A DNA stretch of 64,000 nt, from the NCBI GenBank assembly GCA_963662545.2, contig CAXXLL010000003.1, forward strand, positions 2,048,001-2,112,000, given 5' to 3'. Numbering within the stretch: the first letter of the stretch is position 1; each line of letters opens with the position of its first letter. The notes beneath the pieces are model-generated. The model saw only the letters and a program-made list of their open reading frames with translations, did no database searches and was not told where the DNA came from. The stretch comes from Gammaproteobacteria bacterium. GTDB lineage: Bacteria > Pseudomonadota > Gammaproteobacteria > Ga0077536. Below, piece by piece: positions 14,021-42,345 of the stretch. Position numbers and translations under genes: made by a program.

Positions 14021-14040
14021 AAGGCGGGGGATGTTAAGTG

Positions 14041-22878: not shown

Positions 22879-23205
22879 TTAATCGCGTAAGGTTTCGCCG
22901 GTGAGTGCTTTCCACCGTTGCTTGAAGACATACCATTCCGCATCGGCGCGCTTCCTAAAGCGCCTGTTGAGCATCTTCAACGGTTTGCCGCGGACACCGC
23001 TCGCTTTCGCAAGCTGCCATTCGCGGTTCGGCTTCACCACGACCACGCAGAACTTGTCCTCCATCGGTGCCCCGCGCATGCGATTCAACAGAATTTGCAA
23101 ATCGGGGCTGTGATGTCCGATCGGGTTTCTTTTGAATTCTTCGATCAACTGCCGATCGTCAGGCGGGGGGCGTTCGATCGGTGTGGCGTGACTGGTGTTC
23201 GCCAT
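22879..23205 (-). CDS. dmfA1: N,N-dimethylformamidase small subunit homolog
   Basis: LIEEFKRNPIGHHSPDLQILLNRMR...AEWYVFKQRW; directly upstream of the large subunit. Confidence 0.75.
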   Translation of the reverse strand: MANTSHATPIERPPPDDRQLIEEFKRNPIGHHSPDLQILLNRMRGAPMEDKFCVVVVKPNREWQLAKASGVRGKPLKMLNRRFRKRADAEWYVFKQRWKALTGETLRD

Positions 23206-23397
23206 GGTCTTTATCCTTCCCTCGGTAAGGATTGGAAATCATCTCGAATGTGAGGCTTGCTTGCAATCCGCTCGGGGGGTCGCCCTCATCATGAATCGGG
23301 TGATACATTGAGGGAGGAAGCCGCGGAAGAAGCCCGCGTGCGGGCGAAATACGGCAAATGCTAGTGCGCTTATACATTGCGATAGGAGAGTTAAACC

Positions 23398-24432
23398 TTG
23401 CGAAACTTGAATGATTTTGATGCCTTGGTAACGGCTGCTAATGCAGACCTGGACGATCCCGGACGCAACCGCGCGATGTTTGGGAAGGCCGGCGAACGCC
23501 CCCGATTCGAGGTCTATCACGCGGGCCTGTCAATCTGTTCGCAGAAAGTTCGTGCGGTACTCGCTGAAAAAAACACGCCATACAGGTCCCACGAGATGGT
23601 GATCCTGGCCAGTGGCGGCATCTACTAGGATGATTTCAAACCCGCGGAAAACTACCGGCCCAGTTTCGTGAAGCTCAGGCTTGCGGGCGGTGCGCATCTC
23701 AAATCGAAACTCGCAGCAGCGCACACGGGTCGCTCTTCAGTCGAGACCGAGGGCTTCGATCCCTGCGTTGTTCCGGTCCTCGCGGACCGCGAGACTAACG
23801 AGATCTTCGTGGACTCCAAGGTCATCTGCGAGCATATCGATCGGGTAGTCCCAACTTCTGATCCCTTGATTCCGGACGATCCGGCGCTTGCAGATCGGGT
23901 CGAGCAGCAGGTTCGCGTCGTCGACCAGACGCCGCATCCGGGCGTCTTGTATGGTTTTCACCCAGATGATGATCGCCGCCCGGACTTCATTAAGGCCGTC
24001 ATGGCCGACGTCTACGACAACAAGTGTCATGCGCTCAATCAACTCATCGAGCAGAATCGCGAGGATGCCGATCTGGTTCGGGCGTACGAAAGCAAAATCG
24101 CCAAGGAACAGGCGGGGAAAGCGCGCGCCCGCGACGCCGACGCGCAGCACGCCGTTCGTGCGGAATTCATCGCGCTTATCGAGGAACTGGATGAGACGCT
24201 GGGCGTGTCGGACGGAGATTGGATCTTGGGCGATCGGTATACACTCGCCGACCTCATGTGGGGCATCAGCCTTTACCGCATGCAGTGGCTGGGCCTAGGT
24301 CACCTCTGGGACGAACGTCCACGGGTGGGTAGGTATGCGAGCCGCGCCTACAAGCGCCCTTCAGTGAGGGATGCCGTGATCAATTGGCCGTCGCCGATGC
24401 CGCCGTCACCGCATACTATGGACGTTCATTGA
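23398..24432 (+). pseudogene. Glutathione S-transferase interrupted by an in-frame TAG (23626-23628)
   Basis: ORFs 23398-23628 and 23668-24432 are in one frame: SICSQKVRAVLAEK...GGIY*DDFKPAENYRPSFVKL...CVVPVL...DSKVI...YTLADL. Confidence 0.75.
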
Positions 24433-24463
24433 TCTAGATTCGCTGCCTTGCGGGCGATTAAGT

Positions 24464-25231
24464 TTATTTCCTGAACCGGTAAACGAACCGGTCGGTCCGC
24501 CGTCTGATCTTGTCGTCGAACACGCTCAGCGTGTGATCGTCGTCGGGATTCACCAATGCCTGGCTTTCGGCCTCGAACGCGAATCCCCGGGCCTCGATAC
24601 CCCGGCGTGCGAACAGCTTGCCGATCCGGTGCAGGTCCTGGGCGCGTTTCGCGCCCGTTCCCTCGACTGCCGCGTGATCGATGACGACGAGTTTGCCACC
24701 GGGCTTGAGCGCCGCGTGAAGCTGCGCGAGAAAGTAATCGCGTCCCGGTTGCGGCCAGAAGGCGGCGTGGAAATAGAGGTCGTGGTAGACGAGTCCAAGG
24801 AATATGACATCGAACCGCTCCTGCCCCAATCGGAGGTCGTTCATTTCCGACAACAGTATTTCGACGTTGGACAAGCGATTGTCAGCGAAACGTTGGTCCG
24901 CAAGTTCTCCCGAGAAATTGCGAAAAGCCGCGTTCGTATGCGCGACGACCTTGCCCGACGGGCCGACCACTCGGGAGAAGAGTTCACTCCAATAGCCGCC
25001 CCCTGCGAATAAATCGAGTACCTGCATCCCGGGCTTGAGGCCGGTGAACGGCAGTATCTCGGCGGGTTTACTGGTCTGATCGCGTTTGCGATCCCGCTCC
25101 CAGCGGGTGTCGTATTCGATCGCGTCGGTGATGTATTTCGGTGACTCCGCTGCGCAGGCGTTCGAGGTCGGAGTGGTGAGTACGATTAGGCACAGCAGGG
25201 TAGGCAGTCGACATCGAAATTCTCGTCCCAT
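24464..25231 (-). CDS. Secreted class I SAM-dependent methyltransferase (COG4798-like)
   Basis: RDQTSKPAEIL, VLDLFAGGGYWSEL, ALKPGG.LVVIDH, TDRFVYRFRK. Confidence 0.82.
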   Translation of the reverse strand: MGREFRCRLPTLLCLIVLTTPTSNACAAESPKYITDAIEYDTRWERDRKRDQTSKPAEILPFTGLKPGMQVLDLFAGGGYWSELFSRVVGPSGKVVAHTNAAFRNFSGELADQRFADNRLSNVEILLSEMNDLRLGQERFDVIFLGLVYHDLYFHAAFWPQPGRDYFLAQLHAALKPGGKLVVIDHAAVEGTGAKRAQDLHRIGKLFARRGIEARGFAFEAESQALVNPDDDHTLSVFDDKIRRRTDRFVYRFRK

Positions 25232-25375
25232 GATCGCCTGTTCTCCCATCGTCGGAATCCTAACCACTTGGCTATTTCATCACCTGGCTCGACAACGGCC
25301 AGCCCCTACCCGCAATGCGCATCATGGATCGACTTTTGGAGGAAGAGTAAAAACACGCTTCGCGGCTAACGCCAT

Positions 25376-26899
25376 TCAAGCGGCAAGTTCCGGGGTGTTC
25401 TCGGGCGCACGGCGGTAATGCGTCGCCTGCTCGAAACCGTAGGCGAGGCGGAACAGCTTCGGTTCGGCGTACTGATGGCTGATGATTTCGAGCCCGACCG
25501 GCAGGCCTTGATCCGTAAAACCCGCCGGCACGCTGATCGCGGGCATCCAGGTCTGCGAGGCGATGAGTGTGTTGGTCGGGAAGGCGAGAGTCGGCCACAT
25601 GCCTTCGTCGCAATCGCGTATCAATGGCGGCACCACCTGGACGCTGGGGTAGATCAGGGCATCGAGCTCGCTGCCCGACAGAACGTTCTGCGTCGTCCGC
25701 GCGAATTCCTCGCGCGCTGCCAGACGTTGATAATACATCGGGTCGTATTCCGGCCGGTCCGGACCGAAGCCGCATTGTTCGAGCAGGTCACACGCCGGAT
25801 CGTAGCGGCGGCTTTCGATCAGTTGGTTCAGGCTACGGACGGGTGCGTCGGGCCGCGCACCAAGGAATGAGTTGATGTCGAACTTGGTCCGGTTGACATA
25901 GAGCAGGGTCGCGCCGATGTGGTGCGCGAGATCCGGGATCTCTACTTCGAGTATCGTCGCGCCCGCCTTCTCAATCGCCGTGACGGCTTTGCGGATGACC
26001 TCATTCACCGGAGCGGCGTATTCGTTGTCTTCGGATCCGAGGGCGTTCGTCACTAGCCCCAGCCTCGCGCCGTTCAAGCCGTCGGCCGCGAGGTGCGCAG
26101 TGTAGGTTTCAGGTGCCCGCGCCACGTGGTAGGCAGCGGTAAGCGAATCCGCCGGATCATAGCCGACGAGCGTATTGAAGACCGTTGCGGCATCGCTCAC
26201 GGTGCGGCTCATCGGGCCGATGGTGTCCTGGAAGAAAATCAGGCAGGCGACGCCGTCGCGGCTGATCAATCCCGGCGTGCTGCGCACTCCGACGAGATTG
26301 TTGAACGACGAGGGCACGCGGATCGATCCCCCACAATCGGTGCCGAGGGATATCGTCGCGAGGTTTGCCGCGGTCGCCGCGCCGCTGCCGGAGCTCGAAG
26401 CGCCCGGATCGCGAGCTAGGGCGTAGGGATTCAAGGTATGGCCGCTCATCGAGGAATAGCCGAACCAGCTCGTCGCGAAATCCGGCAGCGTCGTCTTCGC
26501 GAGGATGATGGCGCCCGCTTCGCGGAGCTTGCGCACCACCGTGGCGTCGGATTTCGGCCGGTATCGGGCGAAGGCGATGTTGCCGAATGTCGTTGGCGCA
26601 TCGTTCGTCTCTATGCAGTCCTTGACCAGTACGGGTATGCCATGCAGCGGCCCGGTGAATTCACCGGCGCGCGCAAACGCATCGTCCAGTTCCGCCGCAC
26701 GTTCCCGCGCGTTTTCATTGATGTTCACGATGCAGTTTATCTTCGGGCCTGCCTGATCGTAGGCATCGATGCGGCGCAGGTAACATTCGACCAGATCCGC
26801 CGCGTTCAGCGTGCCGCCCCTCATGGCTTCGTGGATCTCTCCGATCGTGGTTTCTTCGACGCGAAATTGTGTTGCGATGGCGGGCTGTTGCTCGGGCAT
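25376..26899 (-). CDS. Amidase signature family protein
   Basis: GPLHGIPVLVKD, PGASSSGSG, GTDCGGSIRVPS. Confidence 0.92.
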   Translation of the reverse strand: MPEQQPAIATQFRVEETTIGEIHEAMRGGTLNAADLVECYLRRIDAYDQAGPKINCIVNINENARERAAELDDAFARAGEFTGPLHGIPVLVKDCIETNDAPTTFGNIAFARYRPKSDATVVRKLREAGAIILAKTTLPDFATSWFGYSSMSGHTLNPYALARDPGASSSGSGAATAANLATISLGTDCGGSIRVPSSFNNLVGVRSTPGLISRDGVACLIFFQDTIGPMSRTVSDAATVFNTLVGYDPADSLTAAYHVARAPETYTAHLAADGLNGARLGLVTNALGSEDNEYAAPVNEVIRKAVTAIEKAGATILEVEIPDLAHHIGATLLYVNRTKFDINSFLGARPDAPVRSLNQLIESRRYDPACDLLEQCGFGPDRPEYDPMYYQRLAAREEFARTTQNVLSGSELDALIYPSVQVVPPLIRDCDEGMWPTLAFPTNTLIASQTWMPAISVPAGFTDQGLPVGLEIISHQYAEPKLFRLAYGFEQATHYRRAPENTPELAA

Positions 26900-27148
26900 G
26901 AGAGAACTTCGCTTTTCTGATGCTAATTCAACGGGACGTAGATGGAATTATCGCACCGTTCAAGTCCGCGAATCTCATTACCGGTCGTGATTTCTCAGTT
27001 TCCTGCTGATCAGGCCCAGGCGGGCGGATCTCTAGGTGTGCACGATAGACACCCACGAGCAGCCTAGCTATCTTTAACAGCCTGTTTATCGACCCGATGG
27101 TTTCATGGACCGCCGGCGCGGCGGTTGTCATCGAAAGGGGAGCGTAGC

Positions 27149-28567
27149 ATGGAAAATCTCATGAGGCTGAGTGCCGTCGAACAAGCGCGTCTCATACGTA
27201 AGGGCGAAGTGTCCGCAGATGAGATGGTCGAGGCGGCGATCACCCAGATCGAAAAATTGAATCCGGACTTGAACGCCGTGGTCCTGCCGATGTACGACAT
27301 GGCCCGTGCCGCGGTGGGTGAGCTCACCGGCGCGGAGCCGCTGTCGGGTGTACCCGTGCTTTTGAAGGACGTGCTGGCAGAGTACGAAGGCGCACCGATG
27401 ACCGAGGGTTCGCGCTTTTTGCGCGGCTATGTCTCGGCGCGCGACAGCGAACTCGTCTCACGCTACCGAAGCGGCGGACTGGTCGTAGTGGGCAGGACAA
27501 ACGCGCCCGAGTTCGCCTCGAAACCGACCACTGAACCCGAACTCTACGGAGCGACACTCAACCCCTGGGACAAGAGCCGTTCACCCGGCGGGTCTTCGGG
27601 CGGCGCCGGCGCCGCCGTGGCCGCAGGTATGGTTGCCGTCGCGCATGCCAACGACGGCGGCGGCTCGACCCGCATTCCCGCGGGCAACTGTGGATTGGTC
27701 GGTCTCAAGCCGACGCGCGGCCGGAATCCGCTGGGACCTGACTATGGTGACGTCGGCGCCGCCGGTCTCCTGTGTGAACACGTCGTCACCCGCACCGTGA
27801 TGGATACCGCCGTGGTGCTCGACATCACGGCCGGCGCCGATGTCGGCGCGCCATTCTTCCCGCCGCCACCGGCCCGACCGTTCGCCGAGGAAGTCGGCGC
27901 CGATCCGGGCCGGCTCAAGATCGCATTCAGCACACAAGCGATCGTCCCGACCGAGGTCCATCCCGACTGCCAGCAGGCGGCGCGCGAAGCGGCCGCGCTG
28001 TGCGAAGACCTGGGGCACCACGTTGAAGAGGCCAGGCCCGAGGTCTCGGGTGAGCACTTCACACAGTTCTTCACCACCATCTGGTGCGCGATGGTCGCGT
28101 GGATGATCCGCGATTGGTCGCGGCGCACCGGGGTGACGCCGAGCCCGGAATATTTCGAGCTGCATACCTGGAAGATGTTCGAGGTGGATGAGAAGCGGCG
28201 GCCGTCGGATCTTCTGCTCGCGATCCACGACATGCACCTATTCGCGCGCGAAGTCGCGCCCTTCTTCGAGACCTACGACGTGTGGCTGACGCCGACGATG
28301 ATCGAGCCCCCCGTACCGATAGGGTACTTCGATTTCAATCCGGAGGTCCCGCGCCAATCGACCGAGCGCATGGAGAACATCCCGCGGTTTACGGCACCGG
28401 CGAACGCGACGGGCCAGCCGGCGATATCGCTGCCGCTTTACTGGAACAAGGACAATCTGCCGATCGGCGTGCACCTGATGGGCCGCTATGCGGACGAGGC
28501 AACCCTGTTCCGCCTCTCGGCACAGCTCGAAGCCGCCCGGCCCTGGGTCCATCGCTGGCCGGAATAA
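27149..28567 (+). CDS. Amidase signature family protein
   Basis: [27 protein letters not shown]; divergent from the first amidase. Confidence 0.92.
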
Positions 28568-28677: not shown

Positions 28678-29355
28678 CTACTCGACCTTACGGGTACGCA
28701 GACTGGTTTTTATAACCCAAATGATCATGCCCACCGAAATCGCGATCCAGATACCGCCCCACATCACCGTCGCGCCGCCGAATTCTTCGGCCAGCATACG
28801 CGCGTCGGAGCGCAGGTGAGCGCGATCAATGGTATCGCTCCAGATATCTAAAGGCGCGTAACTCATGCTCGTCAGGCCAATTATGCGTAACACGAAGTCG
28901 TTGACGGCTTCGCTCCCCCAGCGCGAAAGCGCGATCAGTCCTGCGCCGGTGGCAAGGGTGAACCCCAGGCCGTACAGGTTCCGCATGAACCAGGCCGCGA
29001 TCACGAGTATCAAGATGCCCAACAAAGCACTGATCAAGCGATCTTTATCGGTATAAACGGTGACCAGGAAGATCAAAGCTCCCCACAGCAGCGAACCGAG
29101 ATAACCGGCACTTAAGGTCAAAAAACGTATGTCACCCGCCGCGCGTACGTGCCCACCCTGACTCTGATTGATCTCCATCTCGATGACGACACCGCCAGTG
29201 GCGACGGCGGTGAGTGCGTGTGAGGCCTCGTGAAAGAAGACCACTAAGGTTTTAAGGGGAGCCAGAAAGGGCGTGGGCCAGAGCGCGAACACGAGGATCA
29301 GGAGCGCCAACAGGTAAACCACCCGAGGAGACCCGCTGCGAGTCGGGCCGGTCAC
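28678..29355 (-). CDS. M50B-like intramembrane metallopeptidase
   Basis: FFHEASH in a TM segment, AGYLGS, SDARMLA; start overlaps the speD stop. Confidence 0.85.
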   Translation of the reverse strand: MTGPTRSGSPRVVYLLALLILVFALWPTPFLAPLKTLVVFFHEASHALTAVATGGVVIEMEINQSQGGHVRAAGDIRFLTLSAGYLGSLLWGALIFLVTVYTDKDRLISALLGILILVIAAWFMRNLYGLGFTLATGAGLIALSRWGSEAVNDFVLRIIGLTSMSYAPLDIWSDTIDRAHLRSDARMLAEEFGGATVMWGGIWIAISVGMIIWVIKTSLRTRKVE

Positions 29356-29714
29356 GAAGATTTCTTGAGGGAGTCGCCGCGATATAAGGTCTGGACTTCT
29401 ATGCGGTCCGGATTGAAATGTGCCTGTAGGATGGGAATAGCGCGCTCCGGCTCCGCCTTACCGCACATAAAGATATCGAATGCGGCGAATCCTTGCTCGG
29501 GCCACGTATGAACGCTGATATGAGACTCCGTCAAGCAAACGACGCCGGTGATCCCGAGCGGCGTAAAACGATGGAAGTATTCATGGAGTAGCGTAGCACC
29601 CGTTTGTTCAATTATTTCTTCGATGGCGTTGCGAACCGAACGTTCGCAGTCGAGATTCGATGCACCGTGAAGATCGACGATGACATGGGATCCCGTTCCC
29701 GGTTTCATCAACAA
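29352..29714 (-). CDS. speD: S-adenosylmethionine decarboxylase proenzyme (short class 1B type)
   Basis: G.HVIVDL, HRFTPLGITGV, LTE/SHISVHTWPE pyruvoyl site, DIFMCG. Confidence 0.92.
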   Translation of the reverse strand: MLMKPGTGSHVIVDLHGASNLDCERSVRNAIEEIIEQTGATLLHEYFHRFTPLGITGVVCLTESHISVHTWPEQGFAAFDIFMCGKAEPERAIPILQAHFNPDRIEVQTLYRGDSLKKSS

Positions 29715-29767
29715 ACCGCCGCGCGGGTCGAACGGAAAATTCGCGTTAAATCGAACCGTCGCACGCT

Positions 29768-30004
29768 TTAATCCACGTCGGGAATCGTGAAATGCTGGAT
29801 ATCGATCGCTCTTAGGAGTTGCAACATGAAAGAAGCCTTAAATGCACCCCGGTTGATCTTCGTTGAGAGGGACGATGGCGTCTCCTCTATACCCAATCGC
29901 CGGAGCCGTCGCGAGAGTTCGGGATAATTTACCCCCTTCAGTGACAGCGCCGATTTTACTATGCGCGTTGCCATCTGTTCCCACCCTTGATCGGTATCGC
30001 CCAT
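29768..30004 (-). CDS. DUF6471-like small HTH protein
   Basis: KSALSLKGVNYPELSRRL..GIEET..LSTKINRGAFKASFMLQLL; AAGGA RBS. Confidence 0.75.
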   Translation of the reverse strand: MGDTDQGWEQMATRIVKSALSLKGVNYPELSRRLRRLGIEETPSSLSTKINRGAFKASFMLQLLRAIDIQHFTIPDVD

Positions 30005-30259
30005 AATCCTTTTCTCTGATCGATTTTCGAACCTTGTTCCGCCCCGCAAACGTGCTATAGGCGTGGCCCAACTTGCTAAGATTTAATACTTGGGGCCCTA
30101 CGGCGCTCCTTTTATGGCATGGTGCTTTGCACTAATTTAGACGAAAAGGCCCGAGAAGTAACTAAAAACGTTAAAAATATACTAAAAAGCACGTTTATGA
30201 ATGAATTATTTTGAAAACGAGATTATTCAGCCTATAATTCGTGCGGCAACGGATGAACG

Positions 30260-31981
30260 GTGTCCACGGGGAGCCCGATGATTTCACCTCAACGGCGACT
30301 GGATCTAGCGGTTTTAGTCATCTTGGCGATCGGCGCCGGGTGCGGTCTGGTCTACGAATTTCTTTTATCCCACTACGCGGGACGGGTGCTCGGCGCGGTC
30401 GAGGTCGCCATCTTTGGCATCATTACCGTGATGATGGTTTTCATGGGGGTGGGCTCGTTTCTGGCCCGTAAAATCGCTAACCCATACGTCGGTTTCGCCT
30501 GGCTCGAAGTCCTTCTCGCGCTGCTGGGCAGCACCAGCGTGCTGCTCATTGGCGGCCTGTTCGCACTTTCCGAGCTGTTTCCAAAAATATTGATGGAAAC
30601 CTTTTCCATCACCGAGGATCTGAGGCCCACCGGTGGCGTGATCGAGACGGTGCGAACCATTGTTACCCTTTCCCCTTACGTTTTCGGGGCCATTCTCGGC
30701 ACGATGATCGGCATGGAGATCCCCTTGATCGGAGAGATCCGGGTCAGGATATTCGACAACACGCTCAAGAATAACGTGGGCGCCATTTACGGTATCGACT
30801 ATATCGGGGCCGGAGTAGGCGCGACCTTATGGTTGGTATTCATGCTGGCGATGGACGTCTCACTTGCGGGCGCGGTGACCGCGTCGATCAATCTATTGTT
30901 AGGCATTGCGTTCTGCATACTCTTCCGAGGCGAGATTAAACGGCCGGCGGCATTATTGGCGGCCTATGCCCTAACCGGAATCGTCATCATGCAGGTGTAT
31001 GACAAAGGCGCGGACTGGTCGGCCTCGATCGAGGATTTACTTTATCGAGACCAGGTTCTATTCCGTGTCAATACCGATCATCAAAGGCTGGTCGTCACTG
31101 AGAGAACGATGGATCCCGCGAAGCCGACCGTGCTGAGTTTTTATATAAATGGACGGATTCAGTTCGCCAGCAATGACGAACACATTTATCATGCGATGTT
31201 GACCTACCCAGCCTTGGCGGCATCTGCGCGTCAGGAGAAAATTTTGATCATTGGCGGAGGCGACGGACTCGCATTGCGGGATGTTTTGCGCTGGGATCCC
31301 AAAACCGTGACGCTACTCGACTTGGACGAAGATCTGGTGCGTTTGTTTCGGGACGAGGTGTCGGGCTCGGTGGACAATGCCCGTCTAATTGAGGCCAACG
31401 ACCGAGCATTCAGCGATCCGCGTGTTGAAACACGCTTTGGCGACGCGTTCTTGACCGTGAACGGATTACTCAGGAACGAAGAAGTATTCGACGCCATCAT
31501 CGTCGACCTCCCGGATCCCTCGCACCCTGATTTGAACAAATTGTACAGCGCCCGATTTTACGCGAAGCTGAACGCGTTGTTGGCCGGAGACGGAGCGATG
31601 GCGGTGCAATCGACCAGCCCCTATCACGCGAAGAAAACTTTTATCAGTATAGGCAAGACCGTTCGGCATTCGGGCTTTTATCACGTCGAGCAGTATCACG
31701 CCAATGTCCCGTCATTTGGTGAGTGGGGTTGGACCATCGCCGTTAAGAACGGTAATTCCGCTCGCGATCGCATCACCGAAATGAAGTCCCCACCAGTGGA
31801 TGATGAGTGGATTACGAAGGGCCTGATGCTCGCCGCGTTCGAGTTTGAAAAAGGTTTTTACGACGACCAGGAAGCCATTGAGGTCAATCGCCTCGGAACC
31901 ATGGTGGTCTATCGGTATCACCATAACGATTGGCGCCGTGATATGGGTATCTATCAATTACCAGAAGGAGAAGACCATTGA
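30260..31981 (+). CDS. Membrane-anchored polyamine aminopropyltransferase (multi-TM + spermidine synthase domain)
   Basis: GLVYE start, about 7 TM helices, QF.S.DEHIYH, LIIGGGDGLALR, AIIVDLPDP, VPSFGEWG. Confidence 0.92.
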   Translation: MSTGSPMISPQRRLDLAVLVILAIGAGCGLVYEFLLSHYAGRVLGAVEVAIFGIITVMMVFMGVGSFLARKIANPYVGFAWLEVLLALLGSTSVLLIGGLFALSELFPKILMETFSITEDLRPTGGVIETVRTIVTLSPYVFGAILGTMIGMEIPLIGEIRVRIFDNTLKNNVGAIYGIDYIGAGVGATLWLVFMLAMDVSLAGAVTASINLLLGIAFCILFRGEIKRPAALLAAYALTGIVIMQVYDKGADWSASIEDLLYRDQVLFRVNTDHQRLVVTERTMDPAKPTVLSFYINGRIQFASNDEHIYHAMLTYPALAASARQEKILIIGGGDGLALRDVLRWDPKTVTLLDLDEDLVRLFRDEVSGSVDNARLIEANDRAFSDPRVETRFGDAFLTVNGLLRNEEVFDAIIVDLPDPSHPDLNKLYSARFYAKLNALLAGDGAMAVQSTSPYHAKKTFISIGKTVRHSGFYHVEQYHANVPSFGEWGWTIAVKNGNSARDRITEMKSPPVDDEWITKGLMLAAFEFEKGFYDDQEAIEVNRLGTMVVYRYHHNDWRRDMGIYQLPEGEDH

Positions 31982-32394
31982 ATGACAAGCTTAATGAAAT
32001 CGTCACCGCTTTGAACGGTGCGAAGACAGAAGAGGGTCTGGGGATCCAGGCGGAAGTTGTCGATGCTGGCGAGGGCCTGGTTAAGGTCGAACTGGAGGAG
32101 CGCGAGGAATTCCCGATCATGATCGATGTCAGTGAGGATCAGATCACGGCGATCGCCAACTTGTGGGACCAACACGACGTCAAGGAAGGTATGGAGACAG
32201 AGATGATGAACGTCATGCTGTCGATGAACATTGCGCTTCCGCTATCGGCCTTTGCCAAAACCGGCAGTACTTATCAACTGTTCGGAGCGATGTCGGCGAA
32301 CACCGTTATGGCCAACGTCGTAGAAGAAATAACCGTACTGAGTGACAACACGATTGCCGTATTCGAGGCCCTTGGTGAGTACCTGAACCGGTAA
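31978..32394 (+). CDS. YjfI-family (DUF2170, CesT-like chaperone fold) protein
   Basis: LPLSAFAK..YQLFGAMS..EEITVLSDN; immediately before PspA as in E. coli yjfI-yjfJ. Confidence 0.8.
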   Translation: MNDKLNEIVTALNGAKTEEGLGIQAEVVDAGEGLVKVELEEREEFPIMIDVSEDQITAIANLWDQHDVKEGMETEMMNVMLSMNIALPLSAFAKTGSTYQLFGAMSANTVMANVVEEITVLSDNTIAVFEALGEYLNR

Positions 32395-32429
32395 TTTTCG
32401 CGAACATTTTGTCTTAAGGAGAACACAAC

Positions 32430-33125
32430 ATGAGTTGGTTAAATGAACTGTTTGATTCCGTGCGCGGCCACGTGAATGCTACCGGCGAGGCCTTGGCGGA
32501 TTCCCAGGCAATCCCGGCGCTGGAGCAGAAAATTCGCGACGCCAAGAAGGATCTGGCCAAGTCCAAGAGCGCCCTGACGGAGATCATGTCGCAAGAGAAA
32601 ATGACCAAAAAACGGGTCCACGACCTCGAGGCAAGCCTGACTGAACATGAAGAATACGCGGTGCAGGCGAGCGACAAGGGCGACGATAATTTGATGAATG
32701 AAATCGTCGATAAGATCGCAGAGATCGAAGATGATCTCGGAGCGCAGCGTGAAGTGCATACGCAACTGCAAGCAAATGTCGGGCGCATCAAAGCAACCGT
32801 TCTCGAGACCGAACGCGGAGTCAAGGCGATGGATCGTGAGGTGAAGAATATAAAAGCGACTGAATATGCCCAGCGAGCCGCTGAGGCAACCGCGGCCCAG
32901 CATTCGGGATCATCGGCCTCCATGGCGAGCGCGGCGGAACGCATGAAGCGTATAAAAGCCCGACAGGAGGAGCGGCGGCATCGCATGGATGCAGCCCGGG
33001 AACTCGCCGATGCCGAGAGCGGTGACGATCTCAAAGCCAAATTAGCGGCCGCCGGCATCGGCGCTAAAAAGCCATCTCGCGAAGCCATTCTGGAGCGTAT
33101 CAACGCCCGCAGGTCGGCTGGTTGA
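32430..33125 (+). CDS. pspA: PspA/IM30-family protein (YjfJ-like)
   Basis: Amphipathic N-helix, LEQKIRDA, long coiled coil, DLKAKLAAAGI...AILERI. Confidence 0.9.
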   Translation: MSWLNELFDSVRGHVNATGEALADSQAIPALEQKIRDAKKDLAKSKSALTEIMSQEKMTKKRVHDLEASLTEHEEYAVQASDKGDDNLMNEIVDKIAEIEDDLGAQREVHTQLQANVGRIKATVLETERGVKAMDREVKNIKATEYAQRAAEATAAQHSGSSASMASAAERMKRIKARQEERRHRMDAARELADAESGDDLKAKLAAAGIGAKKPSREAILERINARRSAG

Positions 33126-33137
33126 CGGGGATCACAC

Positions 33138-33800
33138 GTGAGCTTTCTGAAGCGATTCGGTATCGGCAAGGACCGCGACAAAAGTCCCCGCATACTCGAG
33201 CACCCACGGCATCTCGAACCCGGGGATATCATCCGGTTCGGGTTTGCCGCCCAGACCGAGATCAGCAGCGAAAGCTTCACCGTCGATCGGGTCGAGACGC
33301 TCGATATCGGAGGCGACGCCACTAAGCTGACTTATTTCATGCTGTCGGGCGTGAAACATTCAGTCCGCCTGCACATAGTAGACGACGATACCGTGGAAAT
33401 AGCCCTCGAGGTTCTGCCCGAGGTTCTGTTCGCGGCTTTTAATGAAGATGATCTCGCCGAGGTGCTTGAGCCCGACAGCGGCGAACACCATCACATTACT
33501 GCACGTAAGCTGAGCAAGATTCCATCAGAGGTTCAACCGTGGGTTGGGACGAAGTACCGACAAGAAGCCTATGACAATGCCTATCTCCACAAAGGCGATT
33601 ACAGAAACCGGGCGTTGCCAACCACCGTGGGCGCAGAGGGGATCGGCTGTGACTACGTCATGCTGATCAGCGACGACCGCGAGCGAAGTTTGGAATTTCG
33701 GGTCTTCGACGGCGGCCGGACCGAGGCCCATTTGTGCGCATTATTACCGGTGAGAAAAATCGAGGAATTATGGCCTCGTAGCGGGAAGCCTGACGTGTGA
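33138..33800 (+). CDS. Uncharacterised protein in the YjfK/DUF4178-like position
   Basis: Operonic after PspA; HPRHLEPGDII start, beta-rich; family assignment from context only. Confidence 0.6.
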   Translation: MSFLKRFGIGKDRDKSPRILEHPRHLEPGDIIRFGFAAQTEISSESFTVDRVETLDIGGDATKLTYFMLSGVKHSVRLHIVDDDTVEIALEVLPEVLFAAFNEDDLAEVLEPDSGEHHHITARKLSKIPSEVQPWVGTKYRQEAYDNAYLHKGDYRNRALPTTVGAEGIGCDYVMLISDDRERSLEFRVFDGGRTEAHLCALLPVRKIEELWPRSGKPDV

Positions 33801-34903
33801 TTCACCTACTGCGTTCTTTGCTATACGAGCGCCGGTTCCGCAGCCTGGCGTTTACCGAAGATGAGCTAAAACGCGAGATGTTGCGGTCATCATTCTTCGT
33901 GATGGTGATCTTTATGCTGCATGTGATCGCAATGATGGTCTTTGAAGGCATGCCGGTAGGTGATGCCTTGTGGCTCACATTCACCACGGCGACAACGGTG
34001 GGTTACGGGGACATATCCGCCACGACTCTCCCGGGTCGTGGCGCTACCGTGGTGCTGCTCTACCTCGGCGGAATTTTCATCGTGGCAAAGGCTGCGGGTG
34101 ATTATTTCGACTATCGAGCGAAATCCAGATTACGTAAGAAATGCGGTAATTGGAGCTGGCATATGAACGGACATATCCTGATCATCAATACGCCACGTGA
34201 AGACGGTGAAAGATTCTTTCTCCGCGTCATTGAGCAGTTGCGGGCCAGTGAAGCGTACCGCGACAAAATGGTTCAAATCGTCACACGCCAGTTCGCGGAC
34301 GGCCTCCCCGACCGACTTGCGCAGCTGACGGGACTCGCCCATCACAATGGCGACGGCAGCGACCCGGATACGCTCAAGCGCGTGGATGCAAACGAGGCCG
34401 CTGTCATCGTCATTCTCGCCCGCAAGGAGACCGATGTCGGATCCGACAGCCGCACCTTCGACATTCTCCATCGCTTGCGGGACCTTGGCATTGAGGACGC
34501 TTTGGTCTTGGCGGAGTGTGTGGACGATCGCAATCGCGAACGGTTCAGGCAGGTCGGCGCAGACATCATCATTCGCCCGGTACGGGCCTATCCGGAAATG
34601 TTGGTGCGTGGACTGGTGGCGCCGGGATCCGAACAGATCATCGAAAACATGTTCACGTCGAGTTCTGCTGAATACGCGCGGTATGACCTTGCGATAAACG
34701 GCAAGACATGGTCCGAGGTGGTCTGTACACTAATGCGTGACGATCTCGGGACTGCCGTCGGCTACATCGATGCGGACACGGGCCAGCTCGAAACGAACCC
34801 GCGCGCACGAAACCAGATAAACGGGTCGGCTCTGTTTATCATTGCCAGCGAAGGCGCAATACCAAACGTCGAGCAGGTCCGGGACTCCTTAGCTGCCGCA
34901 TAA
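33797..34903 (+). CDS. 2-TM potassium channel with RCK domain (MthK/Kch-like)
   Basis: Filter TTVGYGD, GHILIIN, GDGSDPDTL, GADIIIRP. Confidence 0.9.
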   Translation: MIHLLRSLLYERRFRSLAFTEDELKREMLRSSFFVMVIFMLHVIAMMVFEGMPVGDALWLTFTTATTVGYGDISATTLPGRGATVVLLYLGGIFIVAKAAGDYFDYRAKSRLRKKCGNWSWHMNGHILIINTPREDGERFFLRVIEQLRASEAYRDKMVQIVTRQFADGLPDRLAQLTGLAHHNGDGSDPDTLKRVDANEAAVIVILARKETDVGSDSRTFDILHRLRDLGIEDALVLAECVDDRNRERFRQVGADIIIRPVRAYPEMLVRGLVAPGSEQIIENMFTSSSAEYARYDLAINGKTWSEVVCTLMRDDLGTAVGYIDADTGQLETNPRARNQINGSALFIIASEGAIPNVEQVRDSLAAA

Positions 34904-34956
34904 GTGCTGCGGAATCGCGACGAAGACCTGGTTATAAGAGAAATGGGGAGCGAGCG

Positions 34957-35901
34957 ATGACGAAGAAAAAGGCATTGGGCGGATGGTTTACTTGCGCGCT
35001 ACTCACCGCCTTGGTTTTCGTGAACGGCTGTTCCAATCAGTACGCAGAAGAAACCAGGCGGCAAAAACAGACGGTCACGGCCAAACTCAGCGCTCTCGGC
35101 TCGAAGATAAACTCAGGCGAGCTCGCCAATATCCTTCTTATCGCCAACTACGCCGATAAACTCGCGCAATCAAAGCCCGATCTGGAGCCCGTAGCTGGCG
35201 TGTTACGACAGGATGCGACGACGTCGGGTCCGCTCTACCAGGGTTTGAAAGAACGCCTCGCTGCCGTCAAAGACGAGCCGGCCAACAAAAATGAGTTTCT
35301 GCCGATCATCGGGGAACTCGACTCCTTGAACGCGGCGACCGATCCCACCATCTTCAATGACAGTTTGATCGACGTCGTGAACACGCTGGCCGATCTCTCA
35401 GGCGGTGAGCTGGCCCGAATCAACATCCCTCAAAATGCCCTGGCCGCAAATGTGCAAGGGAACCCTGTCGCGGGTAGCTACCTCGTTGGTAACCCGTCCT
35501 ACGGTCGCTGGAACAGCGATTCCGGCGGTCGGTCGTTTTGGGTGTTTTATGGTCAGTACCGATTGTTTTCGGATGTCTTGTTCGGCCGGGGATACCACCG
35601 CGGCCCGCTTTACTACAACAGCTGGTACGGCGGTGCTAACCGCTATTCGTATTACAACGATTATGGGCGGAGCACTTACGGGAGGGCCGGCGATCGCGGC
35701 TTTACCCGCGCCCGTCGTAGTGACATGCGATCGAAGGGGCTCACGGTACCCACCCCGGCCAAGCAATATGGATCGGCGGCCGGGAATAAGCGCGTGAGCA
35801 CCTATGCCGCTGCGCGTACCAATCGCGCCCAAGGGGCATCGAAGAGACAATCCAGCTTATTCGGCAGCAGTTCCCGCCGCGCGCGCGCGGGCGGCAAATA
35901 G
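34957..35901 (+). CDS. Lipoprotein with Tyr/Gly-rich segment and Arg/Ser/Gly-rich tail
   Basis: Lipobox-like VNG-C; LVGNPSYGRW..SFWVFYGQY; tail SSLFGSSSRRARAGGK. Confidence 0.75.
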   Translation: MTKKKALGGWFTCALLTALVFVNGCSNQYAEETRRQKQTVTAKLSALGSKINSGELANILLIANYADKLAQSKPDLEPVAGVLRQDATTSGPLYQGLKERLAAVKDEPANKNEFLPIIGELDSLNAATDPTIFNDSLIDVVNTLADLSGGELARINIPQNALAANVQGNPVAGSYLVGNPSYGRWNSDSGGRSFWVFYGQYRLFSDVLFGRGYHRGPLYYNSWYGGANRYSYYNDYGRSTYGRAGDRGFTRARRSDMRSKGLTVPTPAKQYGSAAGNKRVSTYAAARTNRAQGASKRQSSLFGSSSRRARAGGK

Positions 35902-35930
35902 AAAGATTTATTTATTAAAGGAGAGGGAAA

Positions 35931-36836
35931 GTGGAGCAGATCGCCTCATTGTTGATACTCCAAGACGCGTCGATCAACTACTACGCCATCGATTTCATCA
36001 TGATGCTCGGGTTCATGGCTGCGTTGCGTATTCTGGCGGGCTCGATTGCCGAAGTGTCTTTGACGGACGTGTTGGCAACACAAGACAATTTCGCCGTCGG
36101 CATTTCCCTCGCCGGCGCGATCGTGGCCGTCGCTGTGTTGATGATGGGTGTTGTATCAGGTGATGCCGGCGGAAGCTACGTAGACGAAATCTCCTTGATG
36201 GCCGGCTACGGCGTACTGGCAATGGTGTTGATGTGGCTGACGCGGAAAGTCTTCGATCACATCGCCTTGCCCGGCGTTTCCATTCACGAGGAGATCATGA
36301 AAGGAAATGTGGCCGCGGGCCTCGTCGATGCGGGAAACATGATCGCCACCGCGATTATCGTGAGAGCCGCGATGACGTGGGTGGACGGCGCTACTTTAAC
36401 GGGGCTCGCGATGGTTGTGGCCGCCTACATTGCGTCGCAGATCATTCTCGTTCTCGCCACGCTTTATCGCAAGAAAGTGTTCGAAGCACGACATCAAGGA
36501 AAACGGACCTTGGGCGGTGAACTTGCCGATGGCAATACCGCGCTCGCCGTCCGGTTCGCCGGATACCGCCTGGGTGTTGGCCTCGCCGTAACGGCGACGT
36601 CGGGCGTCGTGACCTATGATCCGGCGTTGCTCCCGTTGTCGATGGCCGTATGGTGCATAGTTGCGGTGGTCATGTTTGTCGCCCAGTCGACCTTATCCAT
36701 TGCACTGCGTCTCGTTCTCCTTCCCGGCATCGACATCGGCAAGGAAGTTGGCGAGCAACGCAACGTCGCGATCGGCGCGATCGAAGCAGCGATCTATATC
36801 GGCGTCGGATTCGCGTTCGTCGGCTTGTTGGGATGA
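35931..36836 (+). CDS. Tandem DUF350 membrane protein (YjfL-like)
   Basis: Repeated DNFAVGI, GNVAAGL, GNTALAV, RNVAIGA motifs; about 8 TM. Confidence 0.88.
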   Translation: MEQIASLLILQDASINYYAIDFIMMLGFMAALRILAGSIAEVSLTDVLATQDNFAVGISLAGAIVAVAVLMMGVVSGDAGGSYVDEISLMAGYGVLAMVLMWLTRKVFDHIALPGVSIHEEIMKGNVAAGLVDAGNMIATAIIVRAAMTWVDGATLTGLAMVVAAYIASQIILVLATLYRKKVFEARHQGKRTLGGELADGNTALAVRFAGYRLGVGLAVTATSGVVTYDPALLPLSMAVWCIVAVVMFVAQSTLSIALRLVLLPGIDIGKEVGEQRNVAIGAIEAAIYIGVGFAFVGLLG

Positions 36837-40191: not shown

Positions 40192-42345
40192 TCAAGGGCG
40201 TTCGAAACACCCCCCATGCGCCGCATCCAGACATTTGCCATCGGCGCTTAACTTGGCGTTCCAACTATTACTGAAACCGGCCGCCGTCAGGGTGATCCGA
40301 AACGTGCGGGATTGCGGGTTCGAGCATTCCCAACGGCCGCTACCGCTGACTGTCGAGTGATAGTCGATGGCGCCGCCTTCCTTCATGTTTAAAGTATCGG
40401 TACCGAACAAGCGTTTATAGACCCAGCGTCCCAGAACTTCGTAGCACACCTTATGCAGTAGACGTTCGGCATCCCTAAGTCCGCCGGAGGCCGTTTGATC
40501 GGCCGGATAGAGGCTGAGCGCCGCCTGGAAATCGCGCACAGCGGTTTCCTTGTCGCGCTCGGATACCGCTGCCACCGCACTCGCGAGGTGTTTCTCGAAA
40601 CGCGCGCGTTTCTCCTGTTCGGCACGCGCCGCCGCTTCGGTTTGCAATCGCAGGCGTTCGAGTTCGGCTAGGCGCGTTTCCTCGCGCTGGCGTTGCTCTT
40701 CAGCCAGCCGACGCTCCTCTTCCGCCCTGCGCGAGCGCTCGGCTTCGAGCGTCTGGCGTTCGCCTTCTTTGCGCTCGATCTCCAACTGCGCCTGGCGCTG
40801 CTTTTCGGCTTCAGCACGCGCCGTTGCCTCCTCCGCGGCAATTCGCTCCGCCTCCGCTTCGGCATCTTTGAGACGTACACGTAGCAATCGAAGTTCGGTC
40901 GAATCGGGATCGACCACGGCCGCGCGCAGGAGGGCGCCGTCCGCCTCATCGAAACGTTTATCGACGGTCAATGCCTTCGCCTGATCGAGGAAATGAACGA
41001 GCAGGCGGTGCTTTCCCCTAAGCGCTTCCTCGTGATCCGGTACGCGAGCCAACAACTCGGTAAAACGCTCGAGCGCATTCTCGCCGGGTGGTTCGAGCAA
41101 CTGCCTGGCTTGCTCGAATGCCTCGGCCTGCGCGAGCAATGCTTGCTCCTCGGCAGCTTGCTGGGCGAGGATTTCCCCCCGGGCTCGTTGCAGTTCAGAT
41201 GTGCGTTTCGCCAGTGCGTCGTCCGCTTCGAACGGTGAGGTCCAGGGGATTGTCGAGCTCATCCGTTCGAAAACGCCGTGCCAATCGGGTATGGAATCCG
41301 TGACACCAATCGTTATCGTGATGGCGGCGAGGAGAACCGCGGCACATAAGGCAAGCAATGTCCGCCGCGACACCTTCCCCGAGGACCCTTTCCGCATTGT
41401 CGTTTGCACGGAACCGATGAGGTCTTGGGGCACTTCGAATTCCGACAACCAATCCGCCAAGGTCTGCGGCCGGTCTTGCGGTTTGAACGCGAGTGCGCGG
41501 TCGATCGCTTTCAGGAATCGCTTGGAATATCGTTTCCTGCCGATCTCCGTTGCACTAACGAAATGTTCCTTGGACCTCTCGACGATCGATTTGCTGCGAT
41601 CGATCGCGTCGATCGGGGTGGCGCCACTGATCGCGCGGTAAAGCGTGGCGCCCAGCCCGTAGATGTCGGTCCACGGGCCTTGCTCGTCGCTCTTCGAATA
41701 ATATTGCTCGAACGGCGCGTAGCCCGGCGTGACCAGACTCGTCAGGGTCGCGCCGTGCCTGCCCAGCGACTGCCGCGCCGAGCCGAAATCCAATAGAACA
41801 GGGCTATGGTCCCGCCGAATGAAGATGTTCGCCGGTTTGATATCGCGGTGGATGAAGCCGGCTTCATGGACGAGCGCCAGCCCGCCGAGTATGGGGATCA
41901 GGATTTGGAATAATTCTGCTTCTTCGAGGGTCTTGCGCCGGGTCAAGACGGCCTGCAGGCTCTCGCCCTCCTCGTAGCGCATCACCATGTAGGCCGTATT
42001 GTTGGCCTCGAATACCGCAAAAACGTGCACGACGTTCGGATGATTGAACTGCGCCAGCGTCTGCGCCTCGACGATGAATTTTTCGAGTCCCTGCACGAAT
42101 CCCGAGCTCCTGTCTTCGGATATCGGATGCACGGAGTCGTCGCCCTCGCGGACCGCGAGTTCGATGGGGAGATATTCCTTGATCGCCACCTGCTGCTGCA
42201 GGTTCGTATCCAGCGCGAGATATGTGATTCCGAAGCCGCCCTGGCCCAGAATCTCAATGATCTCGTACCAATGTACCCGGTGCCCCGGCTTGAGTGAATT
42301 GCGGTGAACTTTCGCCACTGCGGCAGGATTCCGGATTGTTGACAA
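40192..42345 (-). CDS. Hanks-type Ser/Thr protein kinase with TM and coiled coil
   Basis: LGQGGFGITY, VAIKEY, IHRDIKPAN, DFG, TPGYAPFEQ, DIYGLG; TM near residue 330; E/R/A coil. Confidence 0.92.
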   Translation of the reverse strand: MSTIRNPAAVAKVHRNSLKPGHRVHWYEIIEILGQGGFGITYLALDTNLQQQVAIKEYLPIELAVREGDDSVHPISEDRSSGFVQGLEKFIVEAQTLAQFNHPNVVHVFAVFEANNTAYMVMRYEEGESLQAVLTRRKTLEEAELFQILIPILGGLALVHEAGFIHRDIKPANIFIRRDHSPVLLDFGSARQSLGRHGATLTSLVTPGYAPFEQYYSKSDEQGPWTDIYGLGATLYRAISGATPIDAIDRSKSIVERSKEHFVSATEIGRKRYSKRFLKAIDRALAFKPQDRPQTLADWLSEFEVPQDLIGSVQTTMRKGSSGKVSRRTLLALCAAVLLAAITITIGVTDSIPDWHGVFERMSSTIPWTSPFEADDALAKRTSELQRARGEILAQQAAEEQALLAQAEAFEQARQLLEPPGENALERFTELLARVPDHEEALRGKHRLLVHFLDQAKALTVDKRFDEADGALLRAAVVDPDSTELRLLRVRLKDAEAEAERIAAEEATARAEAEKQRQAQLEIERKEGERQTLEAERSRRAEEERRLAEEQRQREETRLAELERLRLQTEAAARAEQEKRARFEKHLASAVAAVSERDKETAVRDFQAALSLYPADQTASGGLRDAERLLHKVCYEVLGRWVYKRLFGTDTLNMKEGGAIDYHSTVSGSGRWECSNPQSRTFRITLTAAGFSNSWNAKLSADGKCLDAAHGGCFERP

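Follow-up and report, generated by a model that had tools for sequence, protein, structure and literature searches.

Operons that pair a CesT/Tir-like chaperone, the class to which DUF2170 proteins are assigned, with a PspA-family protein have been catalogued by comparative genomics (Ravi 2024, mSystems, PMC11237479). According to the main text and one supplementary table of that study, a 'second major group' of these CesT/Tir-PspA operons encodes a spermine/spermidine-synthase-like enzyme fused to seven transmembrane (TM) helices, together with an eight-TM YjfL/DUF350 protein, a novel lipoprotein with a low-complexity tail (entered as 'Ctha_1186+Low-comp' in the supplementary row) and a DUF4178 protein. 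The example given is an operon of Shewanella oneidensis (SO_3765/AAN56746.1), whose row ends with an RHH gene, and the proposed role, for which Li 2019 is cited, is the monitoring of polyamines or 'aminopropylation of other substrates'. Here we describe a cluster of ten genes, at positions 28678-36836 of a 64,000-nucleotide stretch of a Gammaproteobacteria bacterium genome (contig CAXXLL010000003.1; the whole stretch is hereafter termed the window), the + strand operon of which almost certainly belongs to this published second group and is built around a membrane-embedded aminopropyltransferase, mSpeE, that depends on decarboxylated S-adenosylmethionine (dcSAM). The operon class, the idea of aminopropylation included, is already published and is not new. 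Literature searches on DUF4178, Ctha_1186 and membrane-bound or membrane-associated spermidine synthase turned up only Ravi 2024 and a paper on the BacA system considered below, and no experimental work on the class was found in the literature searched.

The third group of Ravi 2024 (PMC11237479; same text and table), that of the Escherichia coli yjf type, comprises an ATP-grasp ligase, DUF2491, DUF1190 and an Ion_trans_2+TrkA channel, and its published Alteromonas example has an Ion_trans_2+TrkA K+ channel, as does the window. The slots of E. coli yjfIJKLM-yjfC (DUF2170, PspA, DUF2491, DUF350, lipoprotein and enzyme) correspond to those of the window operon, the two having in common the DUF2170-PspA dyad, a DUF350 membrane protein and a lipoprotein with a Ser/Gly/Arg tail. 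An earlier note on this DNA had drawn the same comparison, which proved apt: the PspA protein of the window shares 32% identity with YjfJ across 226 residues (E 4e-35), and its DUF2170 protein is weakly similar to YjfI (E 1e-5). YjfK (DUF2491) bears a weak hhalign likeness to DUF4178, confined to the N-terminal 80 columns (probability 50%, E 1.6e-4). The two operons differ in that DUF350 is single in yjf and tandem in the window, in that the yjf lipoprotein is a DUF1190 protein ending in Gly-Gly whereas that of the window ends in Gly-Lys, and in the enzyme itself, the yjf enzyme YjfC being an ATP-grasp peptide--spermidine ligase by its RefSeq name and that of the window an aminopropyltransferase. 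The ligase name of YjfC is said to rest on work by Pederick in 2023.

Gene clusters that join an S-adenosylmethionine decarboxylase (AdoMetDC) to a membrane-fused spermidine synthase (SpdSyn)-like protein and DUF350 were reportedly described in 2019 by Li, Kurihara, Kim, Liang and Michael. Such fusions are said not to complement an E. coli speE mutant and their hosts to be without spermidine; the study is said to name no acceptor and to leave orientation, lipoprotein tail and K+ channel undiscussed. The same three-gene association, as relayed in the text of Ravi 2024, is found in the window. The Pseudomonas aeruginosa bac cluster (BacA/PA3732, BacB/PA3731; PMC10948618, PMC2587700) likewise has DUF2170 followed by a PspA-family protein; the NCBIfam BacA model matched the YjfI-type protein of the window weakly (61 bits against a cut-off of 300), and, according to the available portions of the same papers (PMC10948618, PMC2587700), no homologue of spermidine synthase is encoded within the bac operon or close to it.

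To the published description we add a K+ channel that is present in the majority of loci in three non-orthologous forms, a recurrent link to an M50B protease, a predicted outward orientation of mSpeE, the exact co-inheritance of enzyme, DUF4178 and lipoprotein, and the contrast between Gly-Lys and Gly-Gly ends.

Results

Membership of the second group

Ten open reading frames (ORFs) were confirmed between 28678 and 36836, seven on the + strand and three on a divergent - strand arm. The earlier note's description of a tightly packed ten-gene cluster held, each ORF lying where it had been placed and the families named being matched by Pfam or NCBIfam, and its view that a PspA envelope module is joined here to dcSAM and aminopropyl chemistry is supported. 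The protein that it had left as unknown turned out to be a divergent member of DUF4178, described below.

The cluster has counterparts of the six gene families of the S. oneidensis example other than the RHH gene: DUF2170 is followed directly by PspA, the Spermine_synth protein is fused to seven TM helices, DUF350 is tandem and DUF4178 comes after PspA. For the sixth, the lipoprotein, the Pfam and NCBIfam libraries used contain no model named 'Ctha_1186'; its homology to the Shewanella lipoproteins of the class is indirect support. Second-group loci of Shewanella consist of the same families and could be aligned gene for gene with the window operon, the order being lipoprotein-DUF350-mSpeE-YjfI-PspA-DUF4178 in Shewanella and mSpeE-YjfI-PspA-DUF4178-channel-lipoprotein-DUF350 in the window; the two gene orders found among relatives are cyclic permutations of each other. 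Relative to the S. oneidensis row as published in that supplementary table, the window has in addition a K+ channel with two TM helices and an RCK domain (2TM+RCK) and the divergent DUF6471-SpeD-M50B arm. The text and the one supplementary table of Ravi 2024 give the second group without K+ channel, SpeD or M50B, which other tables of that study may list. Features of the third group were sought among the ten cluster proteins, where neither GSP_synth (PF03738) nor ATP-grasp was matched (no search for such a ligase was made outside the cluster), and Pfam and NCBIfam scans of the same proteins gave no match to DUF1190 or DUF2491.

The membrane-fused aminopropyltransferase

The enzyme mSpeE (30260..31981, + strand; 573 residues) consists of a seven-TM domain (approximately residues 10-259) fused to an aminopropyltransferase domain of the dcSAM type (approximately 262-560), the Spermine_synth match (PF01564) covering residues 307-499 and NF002956/PRK03612 scoring 552.9 against a cut-off of 472. 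Exactly seven long helices precede the catalytic domain in the AlphaFold2 (AF2) model (predicted local distance difference test (pLDDT) 92.6, predicted template modelling score (pTM) 0.86), and the modelled catalytic domain superposes on solved SpeE structures with TMt values of 0.74-0.82. Invariant across 52 homologues are Y310, the GGGDG stretch at 332-336, D356, D395, D416 and D419, the last two of which align with the catalytic DxxD (DLTDP/DTTDP) of solved spermidine synthases. An acidic residue in GxG(D/E)G is given as the mark of dcSAM use in the available part of Batth 2023 (PMC10349129). Since GGGDG with its D335, as well as D416 and D419, is invariant and the fold is SpeE-like, mSpeE looks from its sequence to be an active and dcSAM-specific enzyme.

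The same article (Batth 2023, PMC10349129), in the portion available, describes a fungal enzyme of similar construction, NHMT (AN4663), a 558-residue protein with seven TM helices and an SpdS-like domain that resides in the endoplasmic reticulum, places a methyl group on the histidine at the N-terminus of secreted proteins and is active only with its TM domain. NHMT and mSpeE are alike in architecture and in length (558 vs 573 residues), and NHMT acts on the termini of secreted proteins; they differ in that NHMT has Ile in GxG(D/E)G and takes a methyl group from S-adenosylmethionine (SAM), whereas in mSpeE D335, the mark of dcSAM use, is invariant. That mSpeE is an NHMT-type methyltransferase is ruled out by the invariant D335, and the likeness is one of architecture and logic only.

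Within the membrane domain of mSpeE, E153, D180 and N211 are invariant in the 52 homologues and E33 and E83 nearly so; because so many buried polar residues are conserved, the sequences suggest that this domain is more than an anchor. Seven helices place the N-terminus and the catalytic domain on opposite sides of the membrane. Across the 52 homologues, the mean number of Lys plus Arg residues is 3.06 in the N-terminus and 0.60, 2.04, 0.69, 2.79, 0.00 and 2.02 in loops 1-6, respectively, and the 16 residues that follow TM7 contain on average 0.69 Lys plus Arg and 2.21 acidic residues. The positive-inside rule thus predicts a cytoplasmic N-terminus and an extracytoplasmic catalytic domain.

Loci of Bacteroidota that have mSpeE and no PspA, such as L073:7939-13067, contain SpeD, a 409-residue DUF4178 protein, a single DUF350 of 71 residues, mSpeE and a flavin amine oxidase. 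The Flavobacterium-type amine oxidase beside mSpeE begins with a twin-arginine-like signal (SRRNLIKG) and a hydrophobic stretch, followed by Cys, and an exported amine oxidase in this position would fit amine chemistry outside the cytoplasm.

The lipoprotein and its distribution

The lipoprotein (34957..35901, + strand; 314 residues) has a signal peptide ending in VNGC, the lipobox Cys being Cys25, and a Ser/Arg/Gly-rich tail that ends in Gly-Lys; it matches no Pfam or NCBIfam family. In an alignment of 35 homologues Cys25, G313 and K314 are invariant and the motif GNPxYGxW...SFWxWYGxY is conserved. A C-terminal Gly-Lys is present in 55/56 homologues in addition to the window's own protein (56/57), the sole exception being a 253-residue ORF that is apparently truncated; the homologues span several phyla, including Alphaproteobacteria, Desulfobacterota, Acidobacteriota and Binatia. 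In their last 60 residues, Ser accounts for 26%, Arg for 13% and Gly for 12%, and the mean net charge is +12.9. According to the E. coli sorting rule, the residue after the lipobox Cys decides between retention in the inner membrane and release from it; this residue is Gly, Ser or Thr in 30/35 lipoproteins and Asp in 1/35, which by that rule suggests that the lipoprotein is released from the inner membrane.

The distribution of these proteins was surveyed in 301 genomes drawn evenly from the Gammaproteobacteria, that of the window included (the class sample), with mSpeE as the anchor. A full-length orthologous mSpeE was found in 10/301 genomes, again counting the window's own, at 51-58% identity, and a distant TM-fused form (32-36% identity) in four more of the 301. 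Within the family of the window, only 2/24 relatives have any TM-fused form, one of them a genome of the same genus with 92% identity and full synteny; the distribution of mSpeE is patchy. The lipoprotein profile matched 10/300 class genomes, which are exactly those with orthologous mSpeE, and in three of these ten carriers the lipoprotein lies on a different contig from mSpeE; the DUF4178 subfamily is present in the same 10/301 genomes as mSpeE. Because their ten-genome distribution is identical, mSpeE, lipoprotein and DUF4178 are inherited as a unit.

The corresponding lipoprotein of the ligase-type operon, YjfM, ends in ...SSSARGHWGG, and a WGG end was found in 33/40 near-full-length homologues, the other seven being apparently frameshifted; as these homologues are mostly from Enterobacteriaceae, the Gly-Gly end is known for a narrow group only. 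DUF1190 was found in 1/151 genomes of the class sample. Homology of the window lipoprotein to YjfM was considered and rejected (hhalign profile probability 0.7%, with nothing in common beyond the lipobox), and the leads from a protein atlas were weak (UPF0323, 0.79; DUF1190, 0.75). Braun's lipoprotein Lpp, a short coiled coil ending in Tyr-Arg-Lys, is joined to peptidoglycan through the epsilon-amine of its terminal Lys by L,D-transpeptidases. The window lipoprotein likewise has a C-terminal Lys, but it is some 300 residues long, has a long basic disordered tail and is distributed in step with mSpeE.

Gene content of related loci

Enzymes of the mSpeE type are very common, about 9500 genome stretches being estimated from a database scan to match two search patterns. 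We examined 95 loci by jackhmmer with the ten window proteins, namely 15 from the sampled genomes and the 80 best genome-contig matches, a sample that is non-random and contains kin that are not independent (about a dozen loci are from Shewanella). The YjfI-PspA dyad stands beside mSpeE in 50/95 of these loci, hereafter PspA-type; the other 45 are non-PspA loci. Among the PspA-type loci, DUF4178 is present in 49/50, tandem DUF350 in 45/50 (and in 32/45 of the others), the lipoprotein in 44/50 (and within about 10 kb in 12/45 non-PspA loci) and a K+ channel in 33/50, three of the 17 channel-less loci ending within 1 kb of the cluster and so possibly being cut off. SpeD is adjacent in 12/50, M50B in 6/50 and DUF6471 in 1/50, the last being the same-genus genome (L019). 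The earlier note's expectation that channel, SpeD and M50B would be conserved together with the PspA core was thus borne out for the channel, whereas adjacent SpeD and M50B are minority partners.

Supply of dcSAM

SpeD (29352..29714, - strand; 120 residues) is a class 1b S-adenosylmethionine decarboxylase (AdoMet_dc, PF02675, 117 bits; TIGR03330, 125.6 against a cut-off of 75.65) and the only AdoMet_dc match in the genome. Its sequence contains LTESHISVHTWPE, and its Glu-Ser is presumably the self-processing site. In a tree of SpeD proteins the nearest rows were L019 and then L022, with no well-supported branch holding them; for this tree the ORFs, the starts of which were over-called, had been cut to their last 135 residues.

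The genome's only strong Spermine_synth match is mSpeE. A marginal match (25.2-25.7 bits against a cut-off of 22.9) is found in a 295-residue ORF elsewhere in the genome (G000:C3:642898-643287; locus L002, ORF 1366-2253, - strand), which has no NCBIfam family and is probably a different enzyme of the class I methyltransferase fold. A canonical SpeE of about 300 residues (181-214 bits) stands between two SpeD homologues in 19/30 other genomes of the family, where the cluster (e.g. L104-L113) runs divergent SpeD paralogue, canonical SpeE, SpeD. This canonical speE-speD cluster is found neither in the genome of the window nor in the same-genus relative G301, and a third genome of the genus has neither it nor the mSpeE operon.

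Ten further carriers of the orthologous operon divide evenly, five having a canonical SpeE (287-306 residues) and five not. The earlier note had raised the possibility that the transferase is simply the only housekeeping spermidine synthase of its genome; it is indeed the only SpeE there, but the canonical enzyme kept by half of the other carriers counts against a merely housekeeping role. An AdoMetDC is encoded elsewhere in 5/5 tested carriers that have no adjacent SpeD, two being of the PF02675 type and three of the eukaryote-like PF01536 type, for which 14 control genomes gave no match. From the canonical SpeE in half of the carriers and the AdoMetDC elsewhere in all five tested, it follows that the operon always has a source of dcSAM and persists with or without ordinary spermidine synthesis.

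As to other polyamine routes, no CASDH-type gene (Sacchrp_dh_C) was matched in the genome. An nspC-like pyridoxal-phosphate (PLP) decarboxylase (252 bits, below the cut-off of 409) at G000:C2:475168-479181 (L021) adjoins a DUF3326 protein (305 bits) and an ISNCY transposase, and this locus may represent an unrecognised polyamine route; the idea that DUF3326 belongs to a carboxyaminopropylagmatine route found no support in the literature searched and was dropped.

PspA, its partners and DUF4178

The YjfI-type DUF2170 protein (31978..32394, + strand) matches PF09938 with 100 bits and is followed by the YjfJ-type PspA/IM30 protein (32430..33125, + strand; 231 residues; PF04012, PspA_IM30, 114.5 bits). 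A second, shorter PspA_IM30 match (50.6 bits, in a 260-residue frame) lies outside the window at G000:C3:1301510-1301923 (locus L005) and may be the classical PspA. At Binatia locus L094 (11530-14400), and at L078, L085, L095 and L096 (Binatia/Acidobacteriota), a lipoprotein-DUF350x2-mSpeE trio faces a pair formed by PspA and an RCK K+ channel; at L094, the locus covered by the CesT_Tir_1 scan, a gene of the CesT_Tir_1 family (157.7 bits), not DUF2170, lies between PspA and the channel.

The next protein (33138..33800, + strand; 220 residues) is beta-rich, has no TM segment and has no Pfam match of its own. Thirty-two operon-linked homologues can be aligned with it over its full length, and the match of 14 of these 33 sequences to PF13785 (best E 2.3e-8) identifies it as a divergent DUF4178 protein. 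Its AF2 model is well defined (pLDDT 90.4). Solved folds were compared with this model and none was accepted, the best Foldseek match having E 0.029 and the best of 48,161 chains in VIA-align a Z of 4.4; the VIA matches (SAS-6 heads, profilins and type III secretion system (T3SS) chaperones) all lie within noise, and no function could be read from them.

The last gene of the operon encodes the tandem DUF350 (YjfL-type) integral membrane protein (35931..36836, + strand; 301 residues), in which PF03994 is matched in two stretches (115.4 bits).

K+ channels and the divergent arm

The channel of the window (33797..34903, + strand) has two TM segments and a cytoplasmic RCK region, with matches to Ion_trans_2 (PF07885, 39.3 bits) and, marginally, to TrkA_N (PF02254, 25.6 bits against a cut-off of 23.8); its filter, TVGYGD, occupies residues 67-72 and is invariant in 26 aligned channels. 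The channels in this operon slot are of three non-orthologous types, the 33 loci comprising 19 of the 2TM+RCK type, 11 longer Kv-like channels without RCK, all from Shewanella or kin (L050, L051, L056, L063 and others, at about 14000-15000) and with the filter near residue 175, and three of about 155 residues with TIGFGD, in Colwellia-like loci, one of which is cut by the locus end. As three architectures occupy one operon slot, these observations argue that K+ conduction itself is selected in the operon. The earlier note's suggestion that polyamines may gate the K+ flux gained no specific support from the analysis. In a Desulfuromonadales locus whose operon already has the RCK type, a second, Kv-like K+ channel is encoded on the opposite strand just downstream (L024:7682-8554, -).

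The divergent arm ends with a Peptidase M50B-like intramembrane metalloprotease (28678..29355, - strand; 225 residues; PF13398, 162 bits against a cut-off of 26), which is single-copy in the genome of the window. Its HExxH motif at residues 42-46 (H42-E43-x-x-H46) is invariant in seven operon-linked M50B proteins. M50B directly flanks the operon in five further lineages, at differing positions and with 25-28% identity to the window copy, and its link to the operon, as a recurrent minority partner, is more than chance adjacency. In the same-genus M50B (L019:7794-8417), similarity to the window protein extends only to about residue 128 of the latter and the ORF stops prematurely, which may be due to a frameshift or an assembly error.

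The first gene of the arm encodes a small DUF6471 protein (29768..30049, - strand; 93 residues from a TTG start; PF20075, 86.6 bits), with an ATG 15 codons in as a possible alternative start. Its role is presumed to be that of a regulator and its link to the operon is genus-specific; the helix-turn-helix label attached to it in the earlier note found no backing in a sequence search of the PDB, which gave no match below E 0.1.

Genomic context

Genes of the + strand operon are joined by 4-base overlaps or separated by 12-53-base gaps (35 bases between the DUF2170 and PspA genes), and the - strand junctions are one 4-base overlap and one 53-base gap. The arms are separated by an A+T-rich intergenic region of 210 bases (30050..30259), the sequence of which contains a sigma-70-like site: a putative promoter, TTGAAA-16-TATAAT, at 30211-30238, faces the + operon and agrees with 11/12 consensus positions, as a consensus match only. 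An Rfam search of this spacer found no riboswitch or other RNA at E up to 0.1.

The flanking ORFs encode amidases, a cyclase, a cupin and a protein kinase, functions unrelated to the cluster. Upstream, positions 20556-28567 of the window contain an N,N-dimethylformamidase-beta-like protein (DMFA2_C, 330 bits), a methyltransferase and two divergent amidases (507 and 480 residues), and so resemble a locus for amide degradation with no relation to the PspA cluster; on the other side, the 717-residue protein encoded at 40192-42345 (- strand) has a Ser/Thr kinase domain of the eukaryote type (Pkinase, 134 bits). No tRNA was found near the cluster and no mobile-element genes among the ten flanking ORFs scanned, and G+C is mildly lower in the cluster (0.52-0.58) than just upstream (0.60-0.65). 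Recent transfer of the cluster would have the patchy distribution as its sole argument, the tRNA, mobile-gene and G+C checks giving no sign of it.

Discussion

Comparative studies have tied mSpeE-type enzymes to AdoMet decarboxylase, DUF350 and PspA (Li 2019; Ravi 2024), and what these enzymes act on has been a question ever since. A membrane-proximal target other than putrescine, as the earlier note supposed, has likewise been proposed in print (text of Ravi 2024, PMC11237479, citing Li 2019). As a tentative working mechanism for the cluster, we propose that mSpeE may aminopropylate the terminal lysine of the lipoprotein in the periplasm. SpeD would make dcSAM in the cytoplasm; the catalytic domain of mSpeE, given seven TM helices and a cytoplasmic N-terminus, would face the periplasm; and the cationic dcSAM would be passed outward by the TM domain of mSpeE, with its invariant buried acidic residues, or by its partner DUF350. 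The aminopropyl group would be added to an envelope amine other than free putrescine, the likeliest being the epsilon-amine of the C-terminal lysine of the lipoprotein, the long basic tail of which would thereby gain a polyamine-like end. From what is known of their families, PspA, the YjfI chaperone and DUF4178 would stabilise or remodel the membrane from its cytoplasmic face and the K+ channel would, as the response proceeds, tune the membrane potential or the K+ content, with the M50B protease and DUF6471 as accessories.

By analogy, a ligase would pair with a Gly end (YjfC/YjfM) and an amine-alkylating enzyme with a Lys end, both giving a polyamine-like end to the tail. NHMT, as described in the available part of Batth 2023, would serve as a precedent for an enzyme with seven TM helices and an SpdS-like domain that acts on protein termini. 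Taken to its full extent, the proposal would be that of an undescribed bacterial modification, in which mSpeE moves dcSAM across the membrane and builds a protein-borne polyamine on the lipoprotein, yjfM-yjfC arrives at the same end by spermidine ligation, and the whole is a single envelope-stress system with PspA, DUF4178 and a K+ channel on its cytoplasmic side; in this extended form we consider it doubtful.

Several points weigh against modification of the lipoprotein lysine. To our knowledge, export of dcSAM is without precedent, and we know of no dcSAM exporter. The outward orientation of mSpeE is a prediction drawn solely from the positive-inside rule and a predicted model. The equivalent of D419 in canonical enzymes binds the distal amine of the diamine, and its conservation here would be easier to reconcile with a free polyamine than with a lysine that, being C-terminal, carries a carboxylate. 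In distant mSpeE loci, those of the Flavobacterium type among them, the lipoprotein is missing within about 10 kb (12/45 non-PspA loci have it), and the acceptor may be something more universal, e.g. DUF350, DUF4178, a lipid or a small amine. Further, mSpeE could be the polyamine synthase of its genome, which has no other SpeE or AdoMetDC whilst most relatives in the family have the canonical pair; the invariant C-terminal lysine could, as in Lpp, serve attachment to peptidoglycan; and, the lipoprotein having no detectable homology to YjfM, the parallel between Gly-Lys and Gly-Gly ends would be one of analogy only. The assignment of the acceptor is accordingly put forward as a comparative proposal.

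The alternative that survives best is that mSpeE is a membrane-anchored synthase that makes, at the membrane or outside it, a free polyamine (spermidine or another aminopropylated amine), which protects the envelope or signals to PspA, and that it is the only spermidine synthase of the genus. We judge this unlikely, albeit well worth weighing: mSpeE and SpeD are the only strong SpeE and the only AdoMetDC of the genome, the genus is without the canonical speE-speD cluster of 19/30 other family genomes, neither catalytic aspartate varies, the diamine-binding D419 included, polyamine aminopropyltransferases give the best fold matches, and NF002956, scored above its cut-off, is an equivalog named polyamine aminopropyltransferase. 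The exported amine oxidase beside mSpeE in Flavobacterium-type loci would likewise suit a small, diffusible amine. Retention of a canonical SpeE in 5/10 other carriers speaks against this alternative, however, as does the citation of Li 2019 for 'aminopropylation of other substrates' in the text of Ravi 2024 (PMC11237479), and the strict co-inheritance of mSpeE with DUF4178 and the Gly-Lys-tailed lipoprotein would be left unexplained.

An acceptor in the envelope other than a protein, i.e. a lipid or wall amine (phosphatidylethanolamine, an aminolipid or the peptidoglycan stem peptide), with lipoprotein, DUF350 and DUF4178 as adaptors or sensors, appears improbable. It would accord with the tethering of the catalytic domain to a seven-helix domain with invariant buried E153, D180 and N211, with the predicted outward orientation, and with the smallest recurring set (mSpeE, DUF350, DUF4178 and SpeD), which in Bacteroidota loci occurs without the lipoprotein; yet the cluster contains no lipid-handling gene, and neither the invariant Gly-Lys nor the Gly-Gly of the lipoprotein in the ligase-type operon would be accounted for. 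Least probable of all, in our estimation, is a cytoplasmic catalytic domain acting on DUF4178, PspA, YjfI or the RCK region of the channel, the lipoprotein lysine having another use such as peptidoglycan anchoring, for although dcSAM is made in the cytoplasm with no exporter known, DUF4178 is the most constant soluble partner (49/50 PspA-type loci, the Flavobacterium-type loci and an identical phyletic profile) and Lpp offers a terminal-Lys precedent, the seven helices and the alternating charge of the 52 homologues favour an outside location, and the lipoprotein follows the distribution of mSpeE exactly rather than that of a general cell-wall function.

As a gene cluster the window adds little to what has been catalogued. 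Given the predicted outward position of the catalytic domain, the identical distributions of lipoprotein and enzyme, and the contrast of Gly-Lys with Gly-Gly, the comparison nevertheless makes the target of the enzyme testable by mass spectrometry. Should modification of the lipoprotein lysine prove wrong, the cluster would be an ordinary member of a catalogued operon class; if it is true, it would constitute a new protein modification, and PspA-type stress systems would gain a chemical output at the cell surface.

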